Part shown: positions 34,936-61,006 of the stretch, in pieces | Numbering within the stretch: the stretch's first letter is position 1 | Layout of the letters: every line of letters begins with the position of its first letter | Source: an uncultured Pirellulales bacterium | GTDB taxonomy: Bacteria; Planctomycetota; Planctomycetia; Pirellulales; S012-138 | Direction of reading: 5' to 3' | DNA length: 64,000 nt | Assembly (NCBI GenBank): GCA_964445985.1 | Contig: CAYUMU010000009.1 | Span: 27,954-91,953 of the forward strand | Position numbers and translations under genes: made by a program | The notes under the pieces: generated by a model | Told to the model about the DNA's origin: nothing | The model's input: only the letters and a program-made list of their open reading frames with translations | Database searches by the model: none

Positions 34936-37900
34936 CTAAGGCGCTGCCGACGGCGCCCAAATGTGCAGTCGATCACGATCCAATATGGCCAATGCTTTGC
35001 CCTCGCCGAGCACCGCCAATTTGGGCGTGCTGGCGACAGGCACTTCCGCGAGCAACTTGCCGGTATTGAGATTCCAGAGCGTTACCTGGGGCGTAGGGAC
35101 GGAGTTGTACCCCGCGAAGAGTTGCGAGGCAGGATCGTAGGTGGCAGTGTACAGCGGCGGTAGTCTCTTTCGCAGATTGTCGCTCAGCAAACGGATTTGG
35201 GAACTTCTGGTATCGAGTACGCCCACGCCGGTGTTGGTGAGCACGACGATGCCGCTGCCGTCTTTGGTAAAACCGATCGGGCGACAGGGCCAATTCATGG
35301 TTTGCTCGGCGCCCGTTTTCAGATGGATCAGGCGACACACGGAAGTGCGGTCGGTCATTTGAACCGACAAGGGAATCAGCACCTGGTCGCCATCGGGGTG
35401 GAAGATAAGCTCCCTGCCGTTGGTCGTGGCATCGAGATTGAAGGTGCGTTTCCGCTCAAGGCTGGGCAACTCAAAAACGGACAGGGCCTTTTGTGCGCGC
35501 GATAGCAGGAACTTGCCATCAAGCGAGAAGCCCAGGTTCCCCGCATATTCCACGGCCGCAACCACGCCCAAGTGGCCCTTGCCGCGCATATCCACGACAT
35601 TAATGGCCCCGGCGCTGTTCCATGCCAGCAGGTTGCCATCGGCCGACATGGCTGGCGCCGTGAGCGAATTGACCGGGGGCGTGAATTCCCAGAACTTTTT
35701 GCCGTCTCCTATGTCGTAGGCGGCAACCTTCGATTCGAGCCAGCTAAACATGGCCAACGAATCACCCGAGGAAGTGATGATGTAGTTGCTCCAGTAGCGG
35801 GTGGGAGTTCCCGCGCGCACCCACGGTTTGGCGAGGGAGGCCGGCGTGACCGGCGCGCGCTGACCCAGGGGTAAGGTCTCGGGCAATCCCGCTGCTTGAA
35901 CGGGCGACCATTCGGCGGCGAAAATTTGCCCATGGTGCGACTTTCCCGAGGAGTCGGTCAGCACATTGCCCGAGCCATCGTCGCAGTGATAGAGCGCCAG
36001 GGTTTGTGGATCGGCCTCGAACCGGGGCTGGGGAGTAAAATCACTGGAGTACCGGGCGACGCTGGAAATACGAATCTCGTCGATATTTCCACGAAAGTGA
36101 TCGCTGAGTTGCGGCACCGAAGCCGCGCCGATCAAGAACTGATTGAACGCCAGGGCATTGCTGTTGCGCGGCGCGGTTGCGACCCGCTTGCCGTTGACGA
36201 ACAGCCGCAGCTCTTCGTCGGCCCAAACTCCAGCGATATGTTGCCATCCCCGCAAAGTCATTGCCGCGGCAGCCATGGATTGCCAACTGCCATTCTCAAG
36301 AACATGACCACAGCGCCACTCCGTCGATTCTTGTCCGCCCAGGTAAACGCCCGGACCCATTACAATGGCGCCGCGGTTGGCCGAGTGCCGCGACGGCAGC
36401 ACATAGGCTTCGATCGTGAGCGGACCCTTGGTAGGGATCTTGAAATTGGGGACGCTGACGTAGCCCCGGTTTAAGAGTTCAAGGCTGTAGTTAACCTGGC
36501 CTGGGGCGCCGGCCGAAACGAACCAAGTCTCGCCCGATTGGGAACCGATGCCAGAAGATACGGGGAGTTGAGGTGAATTGGGAATGGGGGTGGACGACGC
36601 GATGCTGACAGAGCCCGTTTGATTACTTGCATCCGACTTGATTGCAACCAACGCCACGCGGAAACCCAGGCAGCGATTTCGGAAGGTTGGTTCAATGCCA
36701 TCGCGAAAACTACAAGTGCAAGCGTCGGCGCCGTCTGACCAACATCCACCCCGGCGCACGCGTTTCTCACCTATCGCCGTAGTTTCAGGATCTATTCCTC
36801 CGGCTAACGATCCTCTAAGCCAATCACGGCACCATTCACGCAGGTTACCGTGCATGTCGAAAATTCCCCACGGATTGGGACGCTTCTGACCTACCTGGTG
36901 CGGAAAGGGTTGCCCGCCGAGAAGTGCGTTTTGTTTGTACCACGCATATTGGTCCAACTGAGATTCGTCGGAGAAGGAGTATGTGCTAGTGGTGTGTGCC
37001 CGACAGGCGTATTCCCATTGTGCTTCGGTCGGAAGCGCGTATTTCCAGCCCAATGGTAGTCGGCTGGCGGCGCGTTCCGTTTCTGTCAACTTGTTGCAAA
37101 ACTCGGTGGCATCTTCGTAGCTCACAAAGCTTGCGGGGTAGTCGGAGCCTTGCGGTACAGAGGAATCTGCTCTCCAAGGCTCAGTTCCAATCACAGCTTG
37201 CCACTGGCTTTGGGTGACTTCGGTTTTACCAACCCAAAAGCCTGACGAAAGCGTGACATCGACCGCACTCGTGCGATCACCCATCTTAAATGAGCCGGGA
37301 GGGCACCAAACCATTTTTAGCTGCAAAGAATTGTCGTCCCGCTCGTCACCCGCAGCCGAACCGTGGATGGATGGTGGTTGTGTTGATGAACCAGCTCGCG
37401 GTTGGGTCAACTCTGGAGGAAGGTCGTTCAGATCGATGGTGAAAATCAAAGACCCGTCGGCGGCGACGGTGCGAACGCTCGTTGGCGGCGCGGTTGGCGT
37501 GGTTGGCATAGGGGGCGTGACTGGCGTGCCGCCGGGAGTCGAAGGTGTGCCGCCCGGTGTCGAAGGAGTCGAAGGCGTGCCACCGGGGGTGACGGGCGTG
37601 CCTGGGCCGGGGTTGTTCTCGGCCACCTGCTTGGGCTGGAGCGACACCTTCAGCAGTTCTTCCCCACCTTTGCTGATCGTGAGGTTTTGGCTATGGATGG
37701 TGAAGCCATCTTTGGTCACGGTGATCTGTTTGCTGCCCGGCTTGACGCTGAGTTGCACCTTTTTTTGCCCCGAGGCGTCGGTGATTTCGACCGTGCCCTG
37801 GTCGTCGAGCACTTTGACCACCGCGCCGGGCTCGTTGACTTCCACGACCAAGGTGCCTTCGCTAGTTGGCAGCAGGAACACCACGGCTGCCGCCGCGATC

Positions 37901-39234
37901 GCTGCCAGTATCACCAGTCCCCCCACGATGGGCAGCCACGAGCCCCGCGACTTGCGGTAGGCGACCGAAACGGGCGTGTGTTCGGCATGGATTTGCGGCT
38001 GTGGGACCAACTCCGCGGTCAGCATTTGGCTGTGGTCGGTGGAGTCGCCCATGCTGGCCAGGGTGTTGTCGGGATGGGCGCCGTGAACTTGAGGCGGCGA
38101 TTGCAACCGCGGCTGAGCCAAACCGCTCAGGGAGGGCATCGACAGACCGCTGCCCGAAAGCGAATCGGCGTTCCAGCCTTCCAAGACCGACACACCGGGG
38201 TCGATGGGGGGCGGCCCGCTGGGGGCGGCGCACGTTTCCAAAGCAGCGATCAGCTCCGTCATATTCGCGAAGCGACCGTCGGGCGACTTGGCCACCATGC
38301 GGGTAAAAATAGCTTCTAGCCCGGGGCTGACATCGGGGCGAACTGCCCGAAGCGACGGGATCGGCCGCTCGCGATGGGCAATGAGGGTTTCGACCAGGGT
38401 AGAGCCCTCGTAGGCCGGCCGGCCGGTGAGCAAAAACCAGAGCGTCATCCCCAGGCTGTAGATATCGGAGCGGGCGTCGGTGTTTTTGGTGTTGAGCGAT
38501 TGCTCGGGCGCCATGTAATTGACGGTGCCCATGATCTGGCCGCTCTCGGTCAGGTCGGCATCGCCGGTGGCGTCGAGCCGGGCCATGCCCAGGTCAAGGA
38601 TGCGGACAACCCCGTGGCGGTCGAGCAGCAAATTGGCCGGCTTGATATCGCGGTGAATCACGCCCTGCGAGTGGGCGTAGGCCAGGCCCTTGGCGGCCTG
38701 CATCACACAATCCGCGGCTTCGGCCGGCGGCAAGGGACCCTTTTGGGCAACCAACTGCGCCAGGTCGGCCCCCTCCACGAACTCCATTACCAAAAAGTGG
38801 GTTTGATTGACTTCGTCGGCATCGTAGGCGGTGACAATATTGGGGTGCGTAAGCCGCGCGGCCGCTTTCACTTCACGATGAAACCGCTCGATGGCCCCGG
38901 GCGTTTTCACCACGCGAGAAAACAACACCTTCAGGGCGACAATCCGATCCATCCGCCGGTGACAGGCTTTGAGCACCATGCCCATGCCCCCCTGGCCCAG
39001 TTTGTCCATCACCACATAATTGCCAAGAACCAGATTGGCCCCCTTGCCCTGGTACACGGCCTTGGCCTGATAGGGAGTGAGCTTGCCGAGCCGGATCAGC
39101 TCTTTGGCCAGCGCCGTGGGATCTTTGGGCCGCTGCTCGGGCGGCATGCCCTCGATAACGGCGGTGAGCTCGGCCTGGGGAAGGAGCCCGCACTCGGTGA
39201 GTTGGGCCATGAATTGTTCGAGCGAAACTTGCAT
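34936..39234 (-). CDS. Giant membrane Ser/Thr kinase: kinase - TM - Pro/Thr linker - FGE-sulfatase (SUMF1) domain - LamG/ConA-like domain - beta-propeller
   Basis: HRDIKPANLLL, DLGMAR, YMAPEQ. TM WLPIVGGLVILAAIAAAAVVFLL. FGE-sulfatase MVWCPPGSFKMG..WGIFDMHGNLREWC..RVRRGGCW. LamG ..IDEIRISSVARY. C-terminal WD40-like repeats. Trimmed to ATG 39234. Confidence 0.9.
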   Translation of the reverse strand: MQVSLEQFMAQLTECGLLPQAELTAVIEGMPPEQRPKDPTALAKELIRLGKLTPYQAKAVYQGKGANLVLGNYVVMDKLGQGGMGMVLKACHRRMDRIVALKVLFSRVVKTPGAIERFHREVKAAARLTHPNIVTAYDADEVNQTHFLVMEFVEGADLAQLVAQKGPLPPAEAADCVMQAAKGLAYAHSQGVIHRDIKPANLLLDRHGVVRILDLGMARLDATGDADLTESGQIMGTVNYMAPEQSLNTKNTDARSDIYSLGMTLWFLLTGRPAYEGSTLVETLIAHRERPIPSLRAVRPDVSPGLEAIFTRMVAKSPDGRFANMTELIAALETCAAPSGPPPIDPGVSVLEGWNADSLSGSGLSMPSLSGLAQPRLQSPPQVHGAHPDNTLASMGDSTDHSQMLTAELVPQPQIHAEHTPVSVAYRKSRGSWLPIVGGLVILAAIAAAAVVFLLPTSEGTLVVEVNEPGAVVKVLDDQGTVEITDASGQKKVQLSVKPGSKQITVTKDGFTIHSQNLTISKGGEELLKVSLQPKQVAENNPGPGTPVTPGGTPSTPSTPGGTPSTPGGTPVTPPMPTTPTAPPTSVRTVAADGSLIFTIDLNDLPPELTQPRAGSSTQPPSIHGSAAGDERDDNSLQLKMVWCPPGSFKMGDRTSAVDVTLSSGFWVGKTEVTQSQWQAVIGTEPWRADSSVPQGSDYPASFVSYEDATEFCNKLTETERAASRLPLGWKYALPTEAQWEYACRAHTTSTYSFSDESQLDQYAWYKQNALLGGQPFPHQVGQKRPNPWGIFDMHGNLREWCRDWLRGSLAGGIDPETTAIGEKRVRRGGCWSDGADACTCSFRDGIEPTFRNRCLGFRVALVAIKSDASNQTGSVSIASSTPIPNSPQLPVSSGIGSQSGETWFVSAGAPGQVNYSLELLNRGYVSVPNFKIPTKGPLTIEAYVLPSRHSANRGAIVMGPGVYLGGQESTEWRCGHVLENGSWQSMAAAAMTLRGWQHIAGVWADEELRLFVNGKRVATAPRNSNALAFNQFLIGAASVPQLSDHFRGNIDEIRISSVARYSSDFTPQPRFEADPQTLALYHCDDGSGNVLTDSSGKSHHGQIFAAEWSPVQAAGLPETLPLGQRAPVTPASLAKPWVRAGTPTRYWSNYIITSSGDSLAMFSWLESKVAAYDIGDGKKFWEFTPPVNSLTAPAMSADGNLLAWNSAGAINVVDMRGKGHLGVVAAVEYAGNLGFSLDGKFLLSRAQKALSVFELPSLERKRTFNLDATTNGRELIFHPDGDQVLIPLSVQMTDRTSVCRLIHLKTGAEQTMNWPCRPIGFTKDGSGIVVLTNTGVGVLDTRSSQIRLLSDNLRKRLPPLYTATYDPASQLFAGYNSVPTPQVTLWNLNTGKLLAEVPVASTPKLAVLGEGKALAILDRDRLHIWAPSAAP

Positions 39235-39484
39235 GGGACTGCCCTGACTTCGTGAGGTGGACGTTCGGGGCATTGTAACAAGAAACGGGGGGTAACCGCA
39301 CGTTATTTGGGGGGTGAGCACGGCGTCCGGTCAAATTCCCTCAAACAAGACCCCGACGAGGGCCGTTACAAACCGTGAAATCGCCAGGGCCGGTCGTAGC
39401 TGGCGGCAGGTCGCGGCAGAAAATTTCGAGGCACTTGCAACGTTCAAAGCGTGGCGTATAATTTCCCATCTCACCCAATTAATT

Positions 39485-44013: not shown

Positions 44014-44139
44014 ATGAAATCGCATCGCGAATACCTCACATTCAACGTGCCCGCCCGGATGGGTTTCGAGAACATCACCCCCCAGGTGGAAGAAATCGTC
44101 AGCAAAAGCGGCGTCCGCGAAGGCCTGGTGCTGGTGAAC
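44014..44139 (+). pseudogene. yjbQ: 5' fragment (codons 1-42) of a yjbQ/UPF0047 gene disrupted by the element
   Basis: [42 protein letters not shown] aligns to residues 1-42 of the intact copy at 51604..52026. Homology stops exactly at 44139. Confidence 0.85.
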
Positions 44140-45805
44140 CCGACGACGAATGCACCTCACACCGATTTCCGTCGAGGGGGGTGAGCCCGTGAACCTCGAT
44201 TGCCCATCGCTTGGCCCGATGATTCTTCTGGCCGGCAATCGGGAAGACATAAACTCCGCAGGGGCGACTGTCGGGCAGGCTCCCGTCGAACACTCGGTCA
44301 ATTAGCCCCTTCTTGTCTTCGTCCGACATTTCTTCGATGTAATGGCTCGCCAGTCGAATTGTCGCTGCCAGCCTGGTCTTTTTTCGCTTGAGGACTTTTG
44401 TATCTCCGTCCGTCCACTGGGACAGCCAGTTGGCCGTCACGAGGGCCTGTTCCTTAATTGCATCAGCATCGGGAAGGTGGGAGACGGAATCACTCAGCTT
44501 ATCCCGATCATCCAGCAGTTTGGCCTCCCGGGCTTTCAACTCGCCCAGTTTCTGTTCGGCCTGCTCATCACTGATGGCGTCCCGTTCGATCAAGTTGAGG
44601 ATGCGATTCCTCGCTTTCTCGATTTTGCCAATCTCGATACTCACGTCGGCAATTCGCTTCCTGGCCTCTACGACCTTCTTGGAATTGGGTTGAGCCTCGC
44701 GAATGGCTTTTTCAATCGCGATCGGATTGCCGAAGGTCTCAAACAACAACTCCAATACAGTCGCCTCTAGTTGATCTGCCCGAACCCAGGGCCGGGGCTT
44801 TATGCCGCACTCTCGGCAGCGACTGCTGTGAGCGTGACGATAGTAATGGAGTTTGCAGTGGTTTGTTTGGCCAAACATTCCATAGCCGCACTTTCCACAA
44901 AACACTCGGCCCGATAACAAATAGTCGTGTTTGGGTTTGCCATGCAGATAGGTCTTGTTTGCTTGGCAACGCTTCCGAATCGCCTTGATCGTTACCTCAG
45001 GAAGCAATCGAGGGATGATATGAGGCACCACTTCCTCGATATTCAAGTCGCTGATGGTGAAACTCTCCTCCCATTGAGTTCCGCAACGCTGCATCAGCGT
45101 CTTGTGTAAGTTTGTGTGGTTGATGCCATATTCCGGGGCAAGATTGGCCAGCGACTCCCCCTGTAAATAGCGATGGGCACAATCCTCGACCATCGCCTTC
45201 TTTTCGGGAATCACATTCCATTTGCCGGTCTCTTTGTCGAATTGGCGACCGAAGGGCATCTTTCCACTGGTCGGTATGCCCCGTTTGGCTCTCTCGATGC
45301 GATTCAAGATGGACTTCTGCTTTTGGGTATTTGCCTGGAAAGCGTTGATCGTGGAAGCAATCGACAAGAAAAATCTTGCTTGAGGATCGAACAGATCGTA
45401 TTCGGTCGTCAGCACGAAAAATCGAATGCCGTTGTCTCGGAGGATGTCGAGCCCAGTTTCATTCGCGACATTATCGCGGCTCCATCGTGACGGATCGGCC
45501 ACGATAACGGCGTCGAAAGGCTTTCTTGCTTTCCTGGCATCGGCTAACAATGCATTGAGCTGTTCACGCTCCCAACCCGATGTTGCGTGTTCCTGCCCTG
45601 CATACTTCGTTGCGTGTTCCTGCCCTGCATACTTCTTAGTGATCTGTCCTTCAAGAGAAGCGACGGCCTGCCCAATTTGTTTATCCTGAGTGCGAAGCGA
45701 CTCCCCCTGCTTTTCCTGTTTCTCCGTCGAGACTCGAATTAGAGCAGCGAACCGAAGGGGCTTATTGGAGTCTTGGCCATTCAAGCCAGAGTCTTGTTTG
45801 GGCAT
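44099..45805 (-). CDS. Large serine recombinase (integrase)
   Basis: [14 protein letters not shown] catalytic motif, [12 protein letters not shown], recombinase domain, zinc ribbon [15 protein letters not shown], coiled coil. The last ~13 codons read across attL into antisense yjbQ. Confidence 0.9.
44131..44162. repeat. attL: 9-bp direct repeat CTGGTGAAC (44131-44139) plus left terminal inverted repeat CGAATGCACCTCACAC (44147-44162)
   Basis: The same 9-mer occurs at 53851-53859. The IR matches the reverse complement of 53833-53848 at 15/16 positions. Confidence 0.75.
45582..45635. repeat. Perfect 27-nt tandem duplication inside the integrase catalytic domain
   Basis: gttgcgtgttcctgccctgcatacttc x2, giving [18 protein letters not shown] just before the conserved SG..R segment. 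Confidence 0.9.
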
Positions 45806-46019: not shown

Positions 46020-46373
46020 TCAGTACATTCGCGGCAATTCCAGAACCTCCTCATCGTGGGGAACGCTTTTGCCGGCCCCTTGATTGCGAATGGGCTCCCG
46101 TTCAAAGTTCATTACGGGGAGCGGCAGGGGCGACTCATCCCCCGAAGCATTCTCGACGAGGGCTTGCGAATCGGGATTGCGAATGGACTCCCGTTCAAAG
46201 TTCATTACGGGGAGCGGCAGGGGCGAGTCATCGCCAGTTTGGTTTGCAGGAGTACGTCTTGTGGCTCCCTGTGCTCCCTGGTAACTGCTTCTGCTCGTGT
46301 TGCGATTGATGCTGCCGCCGTCGTCGGCACCCAGGATGCCGCAATTGTGGACCATGATTAGCTGATGCGTCAT
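46020..46373 (-). CDS. Hypothetical protein with an internal 31-residue repeat
   Basis: GD(D/E)SPLPLPVMNFERE(S/P)IRN occurs twice. Same strand as the flanking element genes. Confidence 0.4.
   Translation of the reverse strand: MTHQLIMVHNCGILGADDGGSINRNTSRSSYQGAQGATRRTPANQTGDDSPLPLPVMNFERESIRNPDSQALVENASGDESPLPLPVMNFEREPIRNQGAGKSVPHDEEVLELPRMY
46082..46232. repeat. Two 58-nt direct repeats (56/58 identical), 93-nt period
   Basis: gattgcgaatgg[g/a]ctcccgttcaaagttcattacggggagcggcaggggcga[c/g]tcatc at 46082-46139 and 46175-46232. Confidence 0.9.
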
Positions 46374-47005: not shown

Positions 47006-48403
47006 TCACAATGCTCCGACGCATATTTTTGAAATAGAAACAATTCTTGCGACGCCAGCCAAAGCGTTGGCCAGATCGTCGTGGCCACCGGGAGGATGGT
47101 CGATCACGTCTCGCCCACCGCTGCGAGTGCGTCGCTCCAAACTCGCTAGCTGGGTGATTAGTGTTTCGTTGTCGAGCAGTTCCACCTGACCCGAGCACAA
47201 TTGGGGCAGTAGCTCCAAATAGAGTTGGCTCTTGGGCTGCTCGGCTTTCCTGAACTGAACGCCCCGCTTCTTGAATGACGCGACGACAAACTCGGCGGCG
47301 TAGTTGTCGCCTGTGACCCGATGGAGCCCGAACTTTTGCAGCACCTGGCAGCAGTCGCCGATAACATCGTCGGGGCTGAAGGGCGGCTTCCAGCGATGCA
47401 GCAGATCGACGACCACAACCCTGTCGCGATGGGCAATGGCCAGGGCAGCATCGTCGTGTCGGCCCCCGCTCATATCGACGAAGGCGGAATAGTTGGTTTT
47501 TGGACGGGGCGACAATTCTTGCCTGCCTTTGACGACATACTGCTCGACGACTTCCCGCGTTAGGAAGGTTTCGATGTCATCCCGAAATTCGCCCCCATAT
47601 TCGCTACGGGCGGCAGATGGATCGTCGGCATAGGCATCGTCGATGATCTTCTGGGACAGGGTTGGATTCATCGCCCTGCTGGGCGTATTCCAGACCAGGC
47701 ACTGCCTCGCACCCTGCTCTCGTGATCGTTTGAATTGTCGCCAGCACCATCCCTTGCGGGCATAGGGCGTCGTAATCGCGATCAGCCGACCTCCCACGCT
47801 CGACAACCCAGGGGCGATGGCCTGGATTAGAGCAGAGTCGGACTTGATGCGGCTGCTCTCGTCGAGCCCGAAGAAGGCGGCTTCGTCGACAATCGCGGCA
47901 ATTAGCGTATAACCCCGGATTGATCGCCAATCACCTGCCAGTATTTCAATGCGATTGCCATTCCGTAGCTCGAAGCCCTCGACAGTTTCTCGGGCGACTT
48001 CACCGGACAGGATTGGAGTCGAGTTGAATACCGCCCGACAATAGTCCCTGACAATCCGCCCCTGTGGCTTTGTGGGAGCGATGATCGGCACCACCCCTTT
48101 CTCGCCGGCAGAAAGCTTGGCTTCGTGTCCAGCGAGAATGGCTTCGTAAGCAGCGATGATGGCCGCTATCCGGCTTTTCCCAGAACGTCGCCCTGTAAGA
48201 AACAATGCTTGGGAGTATCCGTCGGGCGGCAATTTCGAGGGGTCGAGGGCAGCAGCGGTTTGGATGAGTGCTTTGTCGGCAGATTTGATGGGCAGTCCAT
48301 AGAGGGCCGAAAGTGCAGCCCTCCAGGGTCGCCATGATTTGAGACTGGCTCCCAGGAATGGGCGAAACAACTGGTCGTCGGAAATGGCTTGAAGAATGTT
48401 CAT
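47006..48403 (-). CDS. Phage terminase large subunit-like ATPase/nuclease
   Basis: Walker A GRRSGKS, Walker B LIAAIVDEAAF, coupling motif ITTPY. RNase H-like nuclease half with FVDMSGG, TGDNY, HPPGGHDDLANA. Confidence 0.8.
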   Translation of the reverse strand: MNILQAISDDQLFRPFLGASLKSWRPWRAALSALYGLPIKSADKALIQTAAALDPSKLPPDGYSQALFLTGRRSGKSRIAAIIAAYEAILAGHEAKLSAGEKGVVPIIAPTKPQGRIVRDYCRAVFNSTPILSGEVARETVEGFELRNGNRIEILAGDWRSIRGYTLIAAIVDEAAFFGLDESSRIKSDSALIQAIAPGLSSVGGRLIAITTPYARKGWCWRQFKRSREQGARQCLVWNTPSRAMNPTLSQKIIDDAYADDPSAARSEYGGEFRDDIETFLTREVVEQYVVKGRQELSPRPKTNYSAFVDMSGGRHDDAALAIAHRDRVVVVDLLHRWKPPFSPDDVIGDCCQVLQKFGLHRVTGDNYAAEFVVASFKKRGVQFRKAEQPKSQLYLELLPQLCSGQVELLDNETLITQLASLERRTRSGGRDVIDHPPGGHDDLANALAGVARIVSISKICVGAL

Positions 48404-49004: not shown

Positions 49005-49640
49005 CTATTTTTTACGTTTGCGAGACTTTGGTTGCATATCGGTCGCAAGCACCGACTGAATGGTGGGCCGTGATAGCCCGACAGCTCTGGCAATCTTGGC
49101 TTTGGCAACTCCATCAGCGGCCATTTGGCGAATGATCTTGTCCTGCTCGACGGTCACTGTCTTACGCACCCCGGCTTTGCTCCCTCCCCACGATCGGCCT
49201 TTCTCTCTGGCTGCTGCAATGCCCGCTGCTTGCCGCTCCCGGCGGGTCTCTTGTTCCATTTCAGCGATGCCCAGCAGAACGGCGGCAAGCATCTTGCCTG
49301 TGGCCCCATTGAAGTCGATTTGCTGGGTCACCGAGACAACCCGCAGCCCTTTGTCGCACCAATCGCAAAGGACATTGATGCCGTCCCTCAGGCTTCGCGA
49401 GAGTCGATCAAGTCGCCAAACAACGATGGCCTCGACCTCACCGTTGAAGATGGCCTTCTGCAACTTCTCGAATTGAGGGCGGGCGAGGTTATCCCCGCTG
49501 GACTTGTCGATCAGCCAGAGGGGGTTGTCGATTGCATGGCCCTCCACCCATCGCTCGATGTCCCGCACCTGGCCTGCTTCGTTCTGACCGACCGTTGAAA
49601 CCCGCACATAGCAGGCCGTTCGCTTGGCTTTCTTTCCCAT
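49005..49640 (-). CDS. Small serine recombinase (resolvase/invertase) with C-terminal HTH
   Basis: TACYVRVSTVGQNEAGQ, IVVWRLDRLSRSLRD, C-terminal AKIARAVGLSRPTIQSVL. Trimmed to ATG 49640. Confidence 0.9.
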   Translation of the reverse strand: MGKKAKRTACYVRVSTVGQNEAGQVRDIERWVEGHAIDNPLWLIDKSSGDNLARPQFEKLQKAIFNGEVEAIVVWRLDRLSRSLRDGINVLCDWCDKGLRVVSVTQQIDFNGATGKMLAAVLLGIAEMEQETRRERQAAGIAAAREKGRSWGGSKAGVRKTVTVEQDKIIRQMAADGVAKAKIARAVGLSRPTIQSVLATDMQPKSRKRKK

Positions 49641-50090
49641 TGATCTTCTCCTGCGATTCTCGAAAGACGTTGATATTCCCCAGCCTTCGCAGGGCCGAGG
49701 GCTGGGCCGGGGGATGATCTTATCCACGCCCCCGCGAGTCGGTCACGAATGAATTACACCTGAAACTTTGCGTTTTCGAGGGGGTCCGAATTGATCGGAA
49801 TCGGGGCGAATCGAGGGGAAGCAGGGCGGGGGGATGATCCTTGACCGATTGGCCCGATTCAGGGCTCGGGCATCGCTTCTGAACGCTTCCCAGACCCTTG
49901 GGGGTTTCGGGGTCGATCGGGAATCAGGGATCGCAGGAGAAGCGATCCCCGAAGCTCTCCGAGGGGGAAGGATCGATCGCGATGGCCCCAAGTTCAGCGA
50001 AGTGCCCGTGCGCCAGGGGGCGAAGTCGGCGACCCTATTCCCCAGACAGGGACATTTGCCGATTCTCGACCTTGAACGAAGGAGGAACCA

Positions 50091-50333
50091 ATGGGCTTAT
50101 TGGTGATTATTAGTTGGGTGGCCGTGAACGCGACAATTGGAGCGTTGATCGGGAAAAGTTGCTTGGGGCGACCGGGCGACGGGGCCATTGTCGGTGGGCT
50201 GTTAGGGCCGTTGGGCTGGCTGATGCTGGCGACTTGCTTTAGCGATACCCGCAAGCGATGCCCTGCCTGTCGAGGCATCGTTGATCCCAGGGCGAGTATC
50301 TGCCCGCATTGTAGGTCGAGCCTAGAGGGCTAA
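50091..50333 (+). CDS. Small membrane protein (2 predicted TM helices) with C-terminal zinc ribbon
   Basis: GGAGG 6 nt upstream of the ATG. MGLLVIISWVAVNATIGALIG..IVGGLLGPLGWLMLATCF then CPACRG..CPHCRS. Confidence 0.65.
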   Translation: MGLLVIISWVAVNATIGALIGKSCLGRPGDGAIVGGLLGPLGWLMLATCFSDTRKRCPACRGIVDPRASICPHCRSSLEG

Positions 50334-50443
50334 GCTGGGCGGAACGGTAGGGGCCGGGACAAGAGAAGAGGAAGTAGACCCCCCGAGACTCTCCCCAGGA
50401 ACCTCACCTTAGAATACCACGCACACTTAGAGTTGTACTTTAA

Positions 50444-50746
50444 TCAGGCAGTGCTCCTAAGCAGCCTAATTTCATGCTCCAGCAGCGACAGGCTCGCTTT
50501 GAGGACGACGCGCTGGGAAAGGCTTAGTTCGTCACTGTCCAGCAAACGTGAGACCATGCTAGCGACCGTCGAGCAATCATTGACAACGCTGTCCTTGATT
50601 TTCAGCATCTCAGTTTGTGGTAACGTCCAAATGCGGTTCACTATGTCGCGGCGTTGTTGAATTAGATAATCTCGTGTGCTGTCAAGCGCATTGACTATCT
50701 GCTTAAATTCTTCGTTGTCCAACATTCCTATTTCCCCTGGTGGCAT
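50444..50746 (-). CDS. Small all-helical hypothetical protein coupled to the GTPase gene
   Basis: Start at ATG 50746 (19-nt overlap with the GTPase ORF) or ATG 50725 (2 nt after its TAG stop). AT-rich codon usage like the GTPase gene. Confidence 0.55.
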   Translation of the reverse strand: MPPGEIGMLDNEEFKQIVNALDSTRDYLIQQRRDIVNRIWTLPQTEMLKIKDSVVNDCSTVASMVSRLLDSDELSLSQRVVLKASLSLLEHEIRLLRSTA

Positions 50747-51540
50747 AAGGATGTCAGTTTGGTGACAAATTGTTGAAGCGACTTCATTTGCTTCTCTTGG
50801 CTATAGTCGGAGTTGGTCTTGGCTAACGTCAATTGCTCTCCACCAAAAAACTTTGGGGCGGCAAAGTCCTTAATGATCTGCGACACAAACGCTATCTCAT
50901 GCTGAAACGCATTTGCTCCGATCGAATGGCGGATTCCTTCTATCACCCTACTGTAATCTCCGTCGAGGTAATGCTGATGCACTTCGTTGGATTCACCAAA
51001 CCATAAGTCTTCTTTTGTTACTACGGTGAGCATCCAAAACTTCTCTCGCCTCCCCCTGATGAGAGGAGCGATGTGATTCAGCACTTCGATTTCTTCTGTC
51101 CGCTTCTCCAGCAGGTACGACTGCAAGAATTGCTCGGCGTCGCCCGTTGCTTGAAAATCCGCGTAAGAACGTTCGCCCTGCATACCTGCCGGCCCGATGG
51201 CATGATAGCCGAAAGCATTCACGACAATAACGCCGTCGACTTCTCCGGTTTTAACTTCCTCAAGAATACCGTCCCAGGAAAGACGTCGATGCCCCTGCCC
51301 AGCCAAAACGTGCAACATCGCATTCTTAAGTTGGGGAGCTTTCTTATCTTCGGTATTAGTGCTCTCTACATACTCCGGAGTTAGGTGCAGCATCGATTGC
51401 CTATGGGCGAACGCTTCGCCCATAGATGTCTTGCCTACGCCGCCAGCACCTACGATTACGATTCGTTTCTTCCGAAACAACTCTTTCAGCTTTGCGAAAG
51501 CAATTGGAGCGAACTCTTTGAGCAAATCTATCCACGACAT
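50728..51540 (-). CDS. Ras-like P-loop GTPase-domain protein with C-terminal extension
   Basis: G1 IVIVGAGGVGKTS, G3-like VLAGQG, G4-like VVTKEDL (NKxD/TKxD type). About 47% GC in a hand-counted 60-nt sample, against about 60% in the flanks. Confidence 0.65.
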   Translation of the reverse strand: MSWIDLLKEFAPIAFAKLKELFRKKRIVIVGAGGVGKTSMGEAFAHRQSMLHLTPEYVESTNTEDKKAPQLKNAMLHVLAGQGHRRLSWDGILEEVKTGEVDGVIVVNAFGYHAIGPAGMQGERSYADFQATGDAEQFLQSYLLEKRTEEIEVLNHIAPLIRGRREKFWMLTVVTKEDLWFGESNEVHQHYLDGDYSRVIEGIRHSIGANAFQHEIAFVSQIIKDFAAPKFFGGEQLTLAKTNSDYSQEKQMKSLQQFVTKLTSLCHQGK

Positions 51541-51603: not shown

Positions 51604-52026
<423 letters not shown>

Positions 52027-53832: not shown

Positions 53833-53859
53833 GTGTGAAGTGCATTCGCTCTGGTGAAC
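53833..53859. repeat. attR: right terminal inverted repeat GTGTGAAGTGCATTCG (53833-53848) plus 9-bp direct repeat CTGGTGAAC (53851-53859)
   Basis: See attL. The host reading frame resumes at 53860. Confidence 0.75.
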
Positions 53860-54156
<297 letters not shown>

Positions 54157-54912: not shown

Positions 54913-55437
54913 ATGATGGACGCGACTTTGCGATTTGCTGCGGGTGTTGCTGAAGGTGATTGGGGAGCAAACATGGAAAATGGATTTGATCTCAAAGCAG
55001 TGTGGAATCGACTGTCCCTTATGACTTCTTTGCGGTTCAAAGCGACATCAAACGCCAGCGGCGGTGGCTGGAACGGCGAGGGACGAGGTTCCGTCGTGGT
55101 CGAGAGCGCCGATCCTACCACTTTGTTGTTTCACGAGAACGGGCAATGGAAATCGGAGGAGGGGAAGGAACTGACTTTCACCAACATGTATCGTTGGACG
55201 GCCCTTCTCGAAACGCACTCTCTCCGACTGGAACACCTCCGGTTTGGCCACAATCATCCGGTTTATCTGTTTGACCTGAAACAGAGCGATGACATTTCCT
55301 GGCAGTCCGTCGAGCCACATGTCTGTCGAGACGATCTCTACACGGCCGTCATGACATTCGGCGCCGACGTGCTCGACCTCCACTGGACCATCCAAGGGCC
55401 AACCAAGAACGAACGGATACACTACTCGTATCAGTGA
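54913..55437 (+). CDS. DUF6314-like protein
   Basis: ..YRWTALLETHSLRLEHLRFGHNHPVYLFDL..WQSVEPHVCRDDLYTAVMTF..LDLHWTIQGPTKNERIHYSY. Start ambiguous (54913 or 54973). Confidence 0.55.
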   Translation: MMDATLRFAAGVAEGDWGANMENGFDLKAVWNRLSLMTSLRFKATSNASGGGWNGEGRGSVVVESADPTTLLFHENGQWKSEEGKELTFTNMYRWTALLETHSLRLEHLRFGHNHPVYLFDLKQSDDISWQSVEPHVCRDDLYTAVMTFGADVLDLHWTIQGPTKNERIHYSYQ

Positions 55438-56265: not shown

Positions 56266-57315
<1,050 letters not shown>

Positions 57316-58330
57316 TGCGATCCGTCGCATTTCGCGGATGGACTTGCGCGCCCGGCACATTGTGGAAGGGTTTTTGTCCGGCATGCACCGGAGCCCTTAC
57401 TTTGGCCAGTCGGTGGAGTTCCTGCAGCACCGGGAATACGTTTCCGGCGACGATGTTCGCAACATCGACTGGAAGGTGTGGGCCAAGCAAGACCGCTTCT
57501 ACATCAAGCAGTACGAAGAAGAAACCAACATGCGGGTCACGCTGCTGGTGGACGTTTCCAACAGCATGCGGTACGGCAATGGCCCCATGAACAAGTACGA
57601 ATACGCCTGCACGGCGGCCGTCAGCCTGGCGTACCTGGCGCTCCGCCAGCAAGACGCCGTGAGCTGCATGGCGTTTTCGGATCGTATCAAGGCGGCCATG
57701 GAGTACCGCAGCCGCAAAACCCACCTGCAGGCCATCATCAAGGCGCTCAGCATCAACGAGCCGCAAGACGCCACCGACCTGGCGCCCATTCTGGCCAATG
57801 TGGCCCAGAACCTGCCCCGCCGCGGCATGATGGTGATCTTTTCGGACTTGCTGGTGGACCGCCCCAGTTTCTTCAAAGGGCTCAAGCTGCTGCGGCAGCA
57901 AGGGCACGACGTGCTGGTGGTTCACGTGCTGGACGACGATGAACTGGAATTCCCCTTCTCTGGCCCCACCCGGTTTGAAGGGCTCGAAACGCCCGATCAC
58001 CTGTCGTGCAATCCTCGGGCGCTTCGCAAAGGTTATCTCGAAGCGCTCAACGCTTACCTGGAAGAGGTCCGCTGGGGATGCACTTCCAACTCGGTGGATT
58101 ACGCCCTGGTGCGAACCAGTTTCCCGCTCGATGCCGCCCTGGCCACCTTCCTGAGCAACCGGTTAGGCATGCACCACAAGAACTAACGCCACCCCGTACA
58201 ACGCACCTAGTGAAATTGATTGCCCCCCATTTGATTACTGACTACCAGCCGTTGACAGAGTCTCGCCCAACGCCCGCCGGTCATGGCGTTGGAGATGGCG
58301 CTGTTTTGCTTTGCGAGGTTCATTCTCCCC

Positions 58331-61006
58331 ATGGCTGAATGGTTTTTTAACGCGAACCTGGTCTGGCTCGGCCTGCCGCTGCTGGCCTTGCCGATCATCA
58401 TTCACCTCATCAACCTGATGAGGCATCGTCGCGTGGCCTGGGCCGCCATGGAATTCGTGCTGGTTGCCCATAAGAAAAGCAGCACCTGGATTCTGCTCAA
58501 GCAACTCCTGCTGCTGATTCTCCGGATCTTGGCGATTGCGGCCATCATTGCCATCTTGGGCCAGTTTGTCTTTCGCGAAGATCGCTGGATGTTCGGCAGC
58601 ACCACCCATCACATCGTGGTGGTCGACGATACCTACTCCATGTCCGACAAGCTGGGCGAAACCAGCGCCTTCGACGACGCCAAAACTGCCGTGCGAAAAA
58701 TCGGCCGCTGGGCGTCCAGTGCCCGCAGCAAGCAGCGGTTCACGCTGGCCAGTTTCTCGTCGGCCGGCAAACCGTTGCCAGAATTGAACAAAGTCGACGT
58801 GGCCACCGATTTCGACAACACCCGGCTGCGCTCCGTGCTCGATGGCCTGCAGGTCTCGCAGGCTTCGGTCAGTCCCCTGCAAGCGCTCGATGGCGTGGCC
58901 AGCGTGCTTTCTTCCACGCAAAACGAAAAGCGCGTGGTCTACCTGGTTTCTGACTTTCGCGATCGAGACTGGGATGCCAGGCAGTTGGCCAACCTCAACG
59001 AACGCCTGGCCACGCTCACCGACGACTCCACCGAAGTCCGCTTGATCCAATGCGTGAATCGCCAGCACACCAACGTGGGCATCACCTCGCTGCAACCGGT
59101 TTCCGGCAGCCCCGCCGCCGGCGTTGGCATCGAGATGGAAGTCCGGGTTCGCAATCACGGCAACAACCCGATTCGCGAGCTTTCGGTGCTACTGCTCGAA
59201 GACGGCCGGCCGCGCACGCCGGTGGTGTTCGAAAGCATCGCCGGCAACGACGAAGCGGCCAAACGCTTCGTGGTGCGCTTCGAGAATCCCGGCCAGCACA
59301 CCGTGACCGCGCGGATTTCCAGCGACGCCGTCGAGGCCGACAACAGCCGTTTTGCCGTGCTCGACCTGCCCGAAGGGCACCCGGTGCTGCTGATCGACGG
59401 CGACCAGGATCGCTCGGGCAGTTGGTTCATCGCCAACGCCCTTAGCCCCGGCGAAGTGCGCACCGGTTTGCGTCCTCAAACCCAAAAACCCAACTACCTG
59501 GCCGAAAAACGGCTCGACCAGTTTCAAACCATTTACGTGACCAACTTCCACCAGCTTTCGCCGCAAGCCGTCGATGCGTTGGAGGAGTACGTTCGATCGG
59601 GCGGCGGCCTGGCCCTCTTTATGGGGCCTCCGTTGGATGAAACGGGCGTGTTCAGCGGATTTGAATCGGACTCGCTGCAGCGGATGGTCGATTTCGTCTC
59701 GCGCACCAACAAGTCCCTGTATCGCAACGGCCAAGGTTTGCTCCCCGCGCCCCTGGCCGCCGATGCACAACTGGTGACCGATCGCCTGGAAACCGCGCCC
59801 GACCTGGCGCCCGAAGACCATCCCATTTTCCGCATCTTCAACCGGACGGGCGACGCCTTCCTCCGCGACGTCAAGATTCTTTCGTACTACGCATTGGCCA
59901 AAGGTTGGGAGCCCGATCCGCAATCCACCACCAAGGTGATTGCCCGTCTGCGCAACGGGGCCCCGCTCGCGATCGAGCACCACTTTGGCTCGCAAAATAG
60001 CCGCTCGCTTCGCGATGCCGAAGCGGCTCTATCGCAAGCTGCCGAGTTGCTCAACCAGGCCCTGAAGAGCGCCAACCCGACGGGCGAGGCCGCCAGCAAA
60101 CAAAAGGAAGCGGTCGCCGTCCAGTTGCGAGAAGCAGGCGATCGTTTTACCGCCGCCTTGGCGGCGCTCGAAGCCCAATCGCAACGGTTTGGCGATTCCA
60201 AGCCGCAATTGGCCGATTACCTCGATCGCCTCAAGGTCTTGAACACCCGCCGCCAGGAACTCGCCGAGCAACTGCTGGCCGCCAAGCCGGCGGGCGCTGC
60301 CGAGTCCAAAGACGGGCCCCCGCTGCCCAGTCGCATCTTGGGCCTGGCCAGCGATGCGGGCCGCCTGGCAAACGACATCACGCTGACCGAAGGGCCGGGC
60401 GGAACCGTGGTCACCTTCCTCACCACCGCCGGGCCGGTCTGGAACAATTGGGCAGCCAATCCCAGTTTTGTGATCAGCGCCCTCGAACTCCAAGCCTACC
60501 TGGCCGCGTCTCGTACGGCCGCGCAGGAGCGGCGGGTGGGAGCCCCCATCGAGGTTCGGCTCGATCCCGAGCAATACCAAGAGAAGTACGTGCTGGCGAT
60601 GCCTGGAGCCAGCGGTTCGGCCAAAACAACGGTCGAAAGAGCCATCCCCAATACCGGCGACCAGCTCGAAACCGCCATCACCGATACGGGCGTCGCCGGT
60701 ATTTACGAGTTGCAGCTATTCCGCCGCGACGGTCGAACCGATCCCCCCCAAACTTTTGCCTATAACGTGGCGCCCGAAGAAGGCGACCTGCGGCTGCTGT
60801 CCACCGCCGATCTGGAAACCCGTGTCACTGCCGATCGCGTGACGGTGGAGGCGGCCGCCGATGTCAAAGGAGCGGCCAGCCAAAGTGCCCGCTCCAACCT
60901 CACCGAAATTCTGTTGTACGTGCTGATCGCCCTGCTGTTGGGCGAACAGATCCTGGCCTACACCCTGAGTTACCACTCCGGCGGCGCGGCCCGCGCGTCG
61001 GCCTGA
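58331..61006 (+). CDS. BatA-type (aerotolerance regulator N-terminal domain) membrane protein with vWA-like and large C-terminal region
   Basis: MAEWFFNANLVWLGLPLLALPIIIHLINLMRHRRVAWAAMEFV is the BatA N-terminal signature. VVVDDTYSMS is MIDAS-like. C-terminal TM helix. Trimmed to ATG 58331. Confidence 0.85.
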   Translation: MAEWFFNANLVWLGLPLLALPIIIHLINLMRHRRVAWAAMEFVLVAHKKSSTWILLKQLLLLILRILAIAAIIAILGQFVFREDRWMFGSTTHHIVVVDDTYSMSDKLGETSAFDDAKTAVRKIGRWASSARSKQRFTLASFSSAGKPLPELNKVDVATDFDNTRLRSVLDGLQVSQASVSPLQALDGVASVLSSTQNEKRVVYLVSDFRDRDWDARQLANLNERLATLTDDSTEVRLIQCVNRQHTNVGITSLQPVSGSPAAGVGIEMEVRVRNHGNNPIRELSVLLLEDGRPRTPVVFESIAGNDEAAKRFVVRFENPGQHTVTARISSDAVEADNSRFAVLDLPEGHPVLLIDGDQDRSGSWFIANALSPGEVRTGLRPQTQKPNYLAEKRLDQFQTIYVTNFHQLSPQAVDALEEYVRSGGGLALFMGPPLDETGVFSGFESDSLQRMVDFVSRTNKSLYRNGQGLLPAPLAADAQLVTDRLETAPDLAPEDHPIFRIFNRTGDAFLRDVKILSYYALAKGWEPDPQSTTKVIARLRNGAPLAIEHHFGSQNSRSLRDAEAALSQAAELLNQALKSANPTGEAASKQKEAVAVQLREAGDRFTAALAALEAQSQRFGDSKPQLADYLDRLKVLNTRRQELAEQLLAAKPAGAAESKDGPPLPSRILGLASDAGRLANDITLTEGPGGTVVTFLTTAGPVWNNWAANPSFVISALELQAYLAASRTAAQERRVGAPIEVRLDPEQYQEKYVLAMPGASGSAKTTVERAIPNTGDQLETAITDTGVAGIYELQLFRRDGRTDPPQTFAYNVAPEEGDLRLLSTADLETRVTADRVTVEAAADVKGAASQSARSNLTEILLYVLIALLLGEQILAYTLSYHSGGAARASA

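Follow-up and report, generated by a model that had tools for sequence, protein, structure and literature searches.

A divergent Ras-like GTPase and a small helical partner carried by an integrative element of an uncultured Pirellulales bacterium: a candidate conflict module

In bacteria, small Ras-like GTPases are uncommon, and little is understood about them. A published census of these proteins holds the MglA and Rup families only (PMC4316618), and MglA has been described as the one GTPase family without the conserved G3 aspartate, carrying TxPGQ (PMC3000849, PMC4316618). Among prokaryotic conflict systems, those of the DO-GTPases are marked by a conserved Walker-B glutamate, often by N-terminal zinc ribbons, and by a large three-domain GAP1 partner together with GASH or FNIII components; the effector domains listed for NTPase-centered conflict systems include PNPase (PMC7159879). 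The present analysis concerns two genes that encode a divergent Ras-like GTPase of 270 residues and a 93-residue helical partner. They lie in a 64,000-nucleotide stretch of DNA (the window) from contig CAYUMU010000009.1 of an uncultured Pirellulales bacterium (assembly GCA_964445985.1), within an integrative element inserted in the host gene yjbQ. The pair is compared here with its relatives in other genomes and is tentatively read as a horizontally mobile switch module that probably acts in biological conflict.

As modeled, the 270-residue protein is an extended-Ras-like G domain of the TRAFAC class. A preliminary description of the window, made from the letters and reading frames alone, had proposed a Ras-superfamily core from the motifs GAGGVGKTS (residues 31-39), LAGQG (79-83) and TKED (175-178), and both structure prediction and structural comparison agree with that proposal. 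The AlphaFold2 (AF2) model, built from a 10-sequence alignment, has a predicted local distance difference test score (pLDDT) of 79 and a predicted TM-score (pTM) of 0.83. Its best Foldseek matches in the PDB are Arl6, Arl2, SRbeta, RagD/Gtr, RRAS2, Ral, Rho, Galpha and IRG (E about 1e-5 to 1e-4; target TM-score up to 0.61), and nearly all of the 50 top matches are Ras-superfamily or related TRAFAC GTPases. In a viral structure library, the model matches giant-virus Rab/Ras/Ran. The assignment rests on this model and on its structural matches to Ras-superfamily proteins. A SIMIBI reading, prompted by GGVGKT and TKxD, was ruled out by the predicted beta2-beta3 hairpin beside the P-loop strand and by structural matches that are exclusively TRAFAC. 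A helical insert of about 45 residues (119-162) separates beta4 from beta5, and the N-terminal helix is amphipathic on weak evidence. The preliminary description had set apart a C-terminal extension of about 100 residues. After TKED the model runs through helices, beta6 and a hairpin to a last helix, and from this order we infer that the region completes the G domain, with inserts, and does not form an additional domain.

The sequence itself places the GTPase in no established family. Searches of Pfam, NCBIfam, PADLOC and PHROGs gave no significant family for it, only matches at the level of the P-loop. The best Pfam scores, RsgA_GTPase (E = 0.0071) and Roc (E = 0.029), cover the P-loop only and fall far under the cut-off. 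The sequence models for Ras, Arf, Roc and MMR_HSR1 were not passed, with no Arf or Ras match, and sequence-profile searches of the PDB likewise gave P-loop matches only. PADLOC v2 matches were of the same kind (IetA, E = 0.0023, and others); the preliminary description had expected no named defense system, and this search found none. The motifs are nevertheless those of a G protein. GAGGVGKT (P-loop G31-T38) conforms to the G1 pattern GxxxxGK[ST] and TKED, extended as T175-K-E-D178-L-W, to the G4 pattern [NT]KxD, with a switch-I serine at S60, G81-Q82 and a GYH triplet at 111-113. In the G3 pattern DxxGQ, the glycine and glutamine are present in the family and the aspartate is absent, its Walker-B position being occupied in the window protein by V78.

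Relatives of the GTPase are numerous. An exhaustive profile search returned 1272 clusters at 50% identity with E < 1e-3 (827 with E < 1e-10 and 351 with E < 1e-30), whose members are nearly all 265-300 residues long. A second search gave 268 clusters at 90% identity, almost all singletons; few of them are named, and most are labeled 'hypothetical protein'. The family is found mainly in Planctomycetes (Gemmataceae, Planctomycetaceae), with further members in cyanobacteria, Armatimonadota, Alphaproteobacteria and Bacteroidota. Scanning genomes by P-loop pattern located at least 11 loci, and scanning metagenomes with subfamily-specific patterns located two, both more distant. The shared motifs are GxGGVGK[ST], xPGQ and [T/A]K[Q/E]DLW. 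When residues were counted over 262 members, G31, G36 and K37 were each kept in at least 256, S60 in 240, G81 in 261, Q82 in 260, E150 in 260, K176 in 261 and D178 in all 262; G111-[Y]-H113 and W180 are conserved as well. Position 78 is valine, isoleucine, alanine or threonine, and never aspartate, in 262/262. A distant member on plasmid pDK4 of Rhodococcus sp. DK176 (L025, 6932-8237), which matches the family profile at E = 1.7e-29, has retained the canonical DTPGQ. Limited literature searches gave no description of the family, which does not prove that none exists; in the libraries and literature searched, the family appears to be unnamed and to have no assigned function.

The GTPase gene and its partner are, in all likelihood, conserved as a two-gene unit. 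The preliminary description had staked its proposal on a linkage between them, and such a linkage was found: a co-directional open reading frame (ORF) of roughly 100-204 residues follows the GTPase gene in each of the 16 independent loci with readable DNA (L001, L002, L005-L014, L017, L019, L020 and L022). Where its start is clear, it falls in the interval from 22 nucleotides (nt) ahead of the GTPase stop to 15 nt past it. In the closest relative (P0002), the gene table places a 92-residue gene 9 nt downstream. In the window, both starts named in the preliminary description are present. An ATG at 50725, 2 nt past the TAG stop of the GTPase gene, gives 93 residues, and an ATG at 50746, overlapping the GTPase gene, gives 100; the former was also chosen when genes were called independently on a Logan contig of identical sequence. 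Divergence of partner and GTPase is correlated (r = 0.71), the partner being about twice as divergent, as examples of GTPase versus partner identity illustrate (81% vs 65%, 55% vs 28%, 52% vs 14%). To judge from these comparisons, the partner gene is an obligate and co-evolving companion that is translationally coupled to the GTPase gene.

The partners themselves are diverse. The window partner, the shortest and most divergent, was proposed from the outset to be a small all-helical protein, and its single-sequence AF2 model (pLDDT 89.7) is a three-helix bundle with helices at residues 4-31, 37-62 and 69-90. Foldseek matched this model to generic three-helix bundles, none below E = 0.06. A resemblance to the GGA GAT domain was not significant and was not used. 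A homologue search with the 93-residue protein recovered only itself. The partners of the other loci share an N-terminal LLKEYxxKL and a C-terminal SQxIEH...ELxLRLAExE. Five of them, from cyanobacterial, Armatimonadota and alphaproteobacterial loci, have hydrophobic mid-segments resembling transmembrane (TM) helices, two segments in four loci and one in L008, and the planctomycete-type partners, that of the window included, have none. On Rhodococcus pDK4, the GTPase gene is followed after 166 nt by a gene for a 128-residue protein with two TM segments.

The pair is also distinct in composition and position. The guanine-plus-cytosine (GC) content of 50444-51540, which spans both genes, is 49.1%, whereas the whole window has a mean of 59.3% (z = -3.4 relative to windows of equal size), and all five of the lowest-GC 300-nt windows in the 64 kb (44-45%) fall within 50551-51050. 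No repeats bordering the low-GC patch were found. The host yjbQ gene, on the forward strand, is split into a 5' and a 3' piece about 9.7 kb apart (Table 1), and both junctions share CTGGTGAAC. Recombinase genes lie between the pieces, including the two serine-recombinase genes that the preliminary description had seen on either side of the block. The genes to the left of the element (PQQ and PD40 propeller genes) and to the right (DUF6314, MoxR, BatA) are chromosomal in look. Because of the split yjbQ, the gene content of the element and these chromosomal-looking flanks, the earlier claim that the pair is cargo of an integrative element inserted in yjbQ holds.

In other genomes, the genes flanking the pair differ in nearly every case. 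The preliminary description had held that membership of a housekeeping family in a conserved context would speak against its proposal, and neither a family match nor a conserved context was found. The housekeeping GTPases Era, Der, Obg and EngB were ruled out by the varying flanks and by the lack of a significant Pfam or NCBIfam match. The co-occurrence and setting of the homologues, which the same description had proposed to check, gave a divided picture: the partner is linked to the GTPase, the zinc-ribbon gene next to the pair in the window is not, and a defense or mobile setting is seen in a minority of loci. Among these, L005 adjoins genes for a type I HsdR, YgjP and an Mrr-like type IV enzyme (PADLOC E = 7.5e-42), the Rhodococcus pDK4 copy has T4CP/DUF4913 genes on one side and a MobF relaxase gene on the other, and two loci have a HicA or HicB gene no more than 5 kb away. 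In three clusters (P0027, L007 and a truncated P0017), an N-terminal PNP_UDP nucleosidase domain is fused to the GTPase. The fused PNP domain matches the PADLOC effector model 'PN-superfamily' of the cyclic-oligonucleotide-based antiphage signaling system (CBASS; E = 2.5e-16) and PDC-M60C (E = 1.3e-17). The fused gene of L007 (4921-6741) still has a partner-like reading frame downstream.

These observations are tentatively explained by a horizontally mobile GTPase-switch module that is probably a conflict system, a reading to which we assign a probability of about 0.45 on sequence-based evidence. The pair would have been acquired horizontally, as its low GC suggests, and would travel here as cargo of the large-serine-recombinase element. 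The GTPase is proposed to bind GTP and to act as a switch, because its P-loop and its guanine-specificity KxD are intact. Since the Walker-B aspartate is missing clade-wide, the nucleotide cycle probably relies on other residues or on the partner. The partner, in turn, may bind the GTPase as a regulator or adaptor, and the TM segments of the non-planctomycete partners would put the complex at the membrane. The output would probably be defense, abortive infection or addiction, because of the PNP fusions and because copies are carried on an integrative element, on a plasmid and in a restriction island. Effector fusions, foreign GC, mobile or defense contexts, singleton distribution and fast partner evolution all favor a conflict role. 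A conflict function of any kind, toxin-antitoxin-like (TA-like) addiction included, may be placed close to even odds. The more specific proposal of an undescribed two-gene immune or abortive-infection system is doubtful; in it, the partner would sense or gate an Arf/SRbeta-like GTPase without the Walker-B aspartate, and the output would be at the membrane or through a nucleosidase.

Several results weigh against a conflict role. About 13 of 17 loci are flanked not by defense islands but by ordinary housekeeping genes, among them the ribosomal str operon and genes for MnmE/YidC, UDPGP/MFS, ArgJ/EutBC, RimK/AstE, RRF, deoxyhypusine synthase, HIT and GNAT. A downstream GNAT gene is common to related Gemmata loci, which suggests that the Gemmata copies are stably resident by vertical descent. 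Neither the GTPase nor the partner has a significant PADLOC match, and the minimal version in the window, whose partner has no TM segments, shows no evident effector. Phage-borne copies were found neither in INPHARED, where a search for the family gave no match, nor among the matches listed from the viral-contig scan, where the one listed covered the P-loop only. The window partner is also not significantly similar to the other partners: a profile of 15 of them ranks it second among the window ORFs (hmmsearch E = 0.44), and hhalign gave P = 0.017. Its equivalence to them is positional and architectural, being based on where the gene lies, on the size and helical nature of the product and on a weak C-terminal motif, and is not statistically supported by sequence. 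The predominance of housekeeping flanks, the lack of a defense-model match and the absence of an obvious effector in the minimal version make a serious rival of the view that the pair is an accessory, non-conflict switch, although by our estimate that view is the less probable of the two. It would comprise a membrane-associated GTPase with a partner resembling an adaptor or a GTPase-activating protein, would govern some process of the envelope or membrane, much as Arf/SRbeta or MglA-type polarity switches do, and would be carried by the element incidentally. The top structural matches (Arl, Arf, SRbeta), the weakly supported amphipathic helix, the predicted membrane anchoring of the partner in five loci and on the Rhodococcus plasmid, the partial synteny among Gemmata relatives and the concentration of the family in Planctomycetes agree with such a switch. 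It accords less well with flanks that differ between genomes, clusters that are nearly all singletons, the foreign GC of the window pair, the very fast divergence of the partner, the carriage on mobile or restriction-linked DNA and the defense-type PNP effector fusions, which are found in one subclade.

Two further explanations are less probable. The pair could be a TA-like addiction module that stabilizes the element, with a toxic free GTPase that the co-translated partner neutralizes. Several features would suit this explanation: the operon has two translationally coupled genes, the second of them small (spacer 2 nt here and -22 to +15 nt elsewhere), the distribution is scattered and single-copy in variable contexts, copies are carried on an integrative element and a plasmid, and HicA/HicB genes lie nearby in two loci. 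However, a literature search found no type II toxin with a GTPase fold, and to our knowledge none is known; TM-bearing partners are atypical for antitoxins, and no DNA-binding domain was found in the window partner by Pfam, AF2 model or Foldseek, so that an addiction module of this kind appears improbable. Least probable by far is the three-gene cassette of the preliminary description, in which an 80-residue protein encoded beside the pair would be its membrane effector. The three genes are adjacent, and the product is a plausible small membrane protein: hydrophobic segments at residues 2-20 and 32-50 precede CPAC...CPHC, the ribosome-binding site GGAGG ends 6 nt upstream of the ATG, and a DZR match (E = 2.5e-4) lies below the Pfam cut-off. 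What that description stated about the three ORFs, their motifs and the low GC was borne out by the sequence. The gene nevertheless lies on the opposite strand, convergent with the pair and 110 nt from the partner stop. Its GC is 58.8%, in keeping with the element backbone, against 49% for the pair; the low-GC patch therefore comprises the GTPase and partner genes only, and the claim that the whole block is AT-rich stands for the pair and fails for this gene. In the other loci, a search of the 4 kb around the GTPase gene found no similar gene; the CxxC...CxxC ORFs at that distance were two short ones (42 and 58 residues) unlike the 80-residue protein. The latter had no match in phages or plasmids, and neither it nor the partner had one in PADLOC v2. 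Because the zinc-ribbon gene is absent elsewhere and has a normal GC, the conserved unit consists of two genes, not three, and the zinc-ribbon gene is an unrelated neighbor.

The other genes of the element and the features of the insertion are collected in Table 1. The terminase-like gene is accompanied by no portal, capsid or tail genes in the element of about 9.7 kb, which fits a satellite-like element or a decayed prophage, and the element resembles one of these. The 271-residue resolvase-like protein carries the motif YIRVSSKGQ. The intact yjbQ copy ends 63 nt upstream of the GTPase start and on the same strand, as the preliminary description had noted, but its linkage to the GTPase is not general, the upstream genes of the homologues being different.

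Table 1. Positions of the GTPase pair, its neighbor and the other features of the integrative element in the window.
Feature	Coordinates	Strand	Evidence
Divergent Ras-like (TRAFAC) GTPase, 270 residues	50728..51540	-	ORF, AF2, Foldseek, family conservation
Partner, 93-residue three-helix bundle	50444..50725	-	ORF, AF2 single sequence, position in other loci
80-residue protein, two TM segments and C-terminal CPAC/CPHC zinc ribbon	50091..50333	+	ORF, hydrophobicity, DZR E = 2.5e-4
5' fragment of disrupted host yjbQ, left junction	44014..44143	+	repeats, alignment
3' fragment of disrupted host yjbQ, right junction	53857..54154	+	ORF, repeats, alignment
Large serine recombinase, 568 residues, left end	44099..45805	-	Resolvase E = 5e-16, Zn_ribbon_recom E = 2.5e-10, phrog_95 integrase E = 1.6e-50
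Terminase-large-subunit-like gene	47006..48403	-	phrog_2 E = 4.3e-27
Small serine recombinase / DNA invertase	49005..49727	-	Resolvase E = 1.7e-31, phrog_125 E = 3.6e-47
Intact UPF0047/yjbQ copy	51604..52026	-	Pfam E = 1.1e-35, repeats I1 and I2, alignment
271-residue resolvase-like protein, C-terminal helix-turn-helix	52919..53734	-	Resolvase E = 7.8e-4, HTH_23 E = 1.5e-4, phrog_125 E = 1.3e-6

Other observations concern the element and its surroundings. The yjbQ copy on the element is opposite in orientation to the host copy and is 90% identical to the host 3' fragment and 70% to the 5' fragment; this disparity suggests that the gene compensates for the disrupted host copy and that its history is mosaic or gene-converted. 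Inside the DUF6314 ORF, 814 nt downstream of the real 3' fragment, 28 nt at 54940-54967 repeat the extreme 3' end of yjbQ with 93% identity and may be left over from an earlier site of insertion or attachment. At the left junction, the ORF of the large serine recombinase extends about 45 nt into the host yjbQ 5' fragment (44099-44143), so that the excised form would have a different C-terminus. The 5' part of the same gene contains a perfect 27-nt tandem duplication, an in-frame repeat of nine codons (45582-45635). Between this gene and a 218-residue ORF lie two 61-nt direct repeats (46082-46142 and 46175-46235; 95% identical, 93-nt spacing), possibly a binding-site array or a small repeated element. 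Outside the element, 34936-39321 on the reverse strand encodes a 1461-residue protein with Ser/Thr kinase, FGE-sulfatase and Laminin_G_3 domains. A MoxR-type AAA_3 ATPase gene followed by BatA/VWA genes occupies 56266-61006 as a Bat-like operon, from which point GC is back to about 60%.

The family comprises hundreds of clusters, lacks the Walker-B aspartate, is accompanied by an apparently obligate partner and was missed here by the Ras, Arf and Roc models of Pfam. With it, the working of a G domain that lacks this aspartate can be studied in a new and compact system. If the conflict reading is true, the pair would represent a new class of GTPase-gated defense or addiction module, and the subclade with PNP fusions would provide a directly assayable enzymatic read-out. 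If the narrower immune-system reading is true, the controllers of prokaryotic immunity would include small Ras-like switches next to STAND, dynamin and McrB-type NTPases.

Among described proteins, the Arf/Arl/SRbeta and Rag/Gtr GTPases are closest in structure, with Arl6 (4v0l_A, E = 7.6e-6), SRbeta (1nrj_B) and RagD (2q3f) as best matches and Arl3 (7ok7_E) matching at a target TM-score of 0.61. The window GTPase shares with Ras an identical P-loop GAGGVGK, a Gly-Gln in switch II and the KxD guanine motif, and with Arf/Sar a helix before the P-loop at its N-terminus. In contrast to the Arf/Arl/SRbeta and Rag proteins, it has no membership at the level of sequence, its family lacks the Walker-B aspartate throughout the 262 members counted, and the protein, of about 270-290 residues, has inserted helices between beta4 and beta5 and a hairpin just ahead of its last helix. 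MglA is approached in the family motif [V/I]xPGQ without the Walker-B aspartate and in the obligate partner gene. However, whereas MglB is a Roadblock/LC7 protein, the partner is a three-helix bundle encoded downstream, with no roadblock match, and MglA was ruled out because hhalign aligned the P-loop only (24 columns, probability 10%).

Conflict systems offer a different set of likenesses. In the DO-GTPase/GAP1 systems, too, a TRAFAC GTPase is followed by a conserved partner encoded downstream; some of their components are membrane-linked, and PNPase is one of the effector domains (PMC7159879). These systems were ruled out because neither protein has a significant Pfam match, because valine or isoleucine occupies the Walker-B position and because the partner is a helical protein of 93-204 residues; the Walker-B glutamate, the N-terminal zinc ribbons, GAP1 and the GASH or FNIII components are all absent from the window pair. 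Unlike the NTPase sensors that are coupled to PNP effectors, the window protein has no effector domain and is a small GTPase, neither a STAND protein nor CD-NTase-linked. The likeness to these systems lies with its relatives, in that the N-terminal PNP_UDP domains of L007, P0027 and P0017 match the effector models of the CBASS PN-superfamily and of PADLOC PDC-M60.

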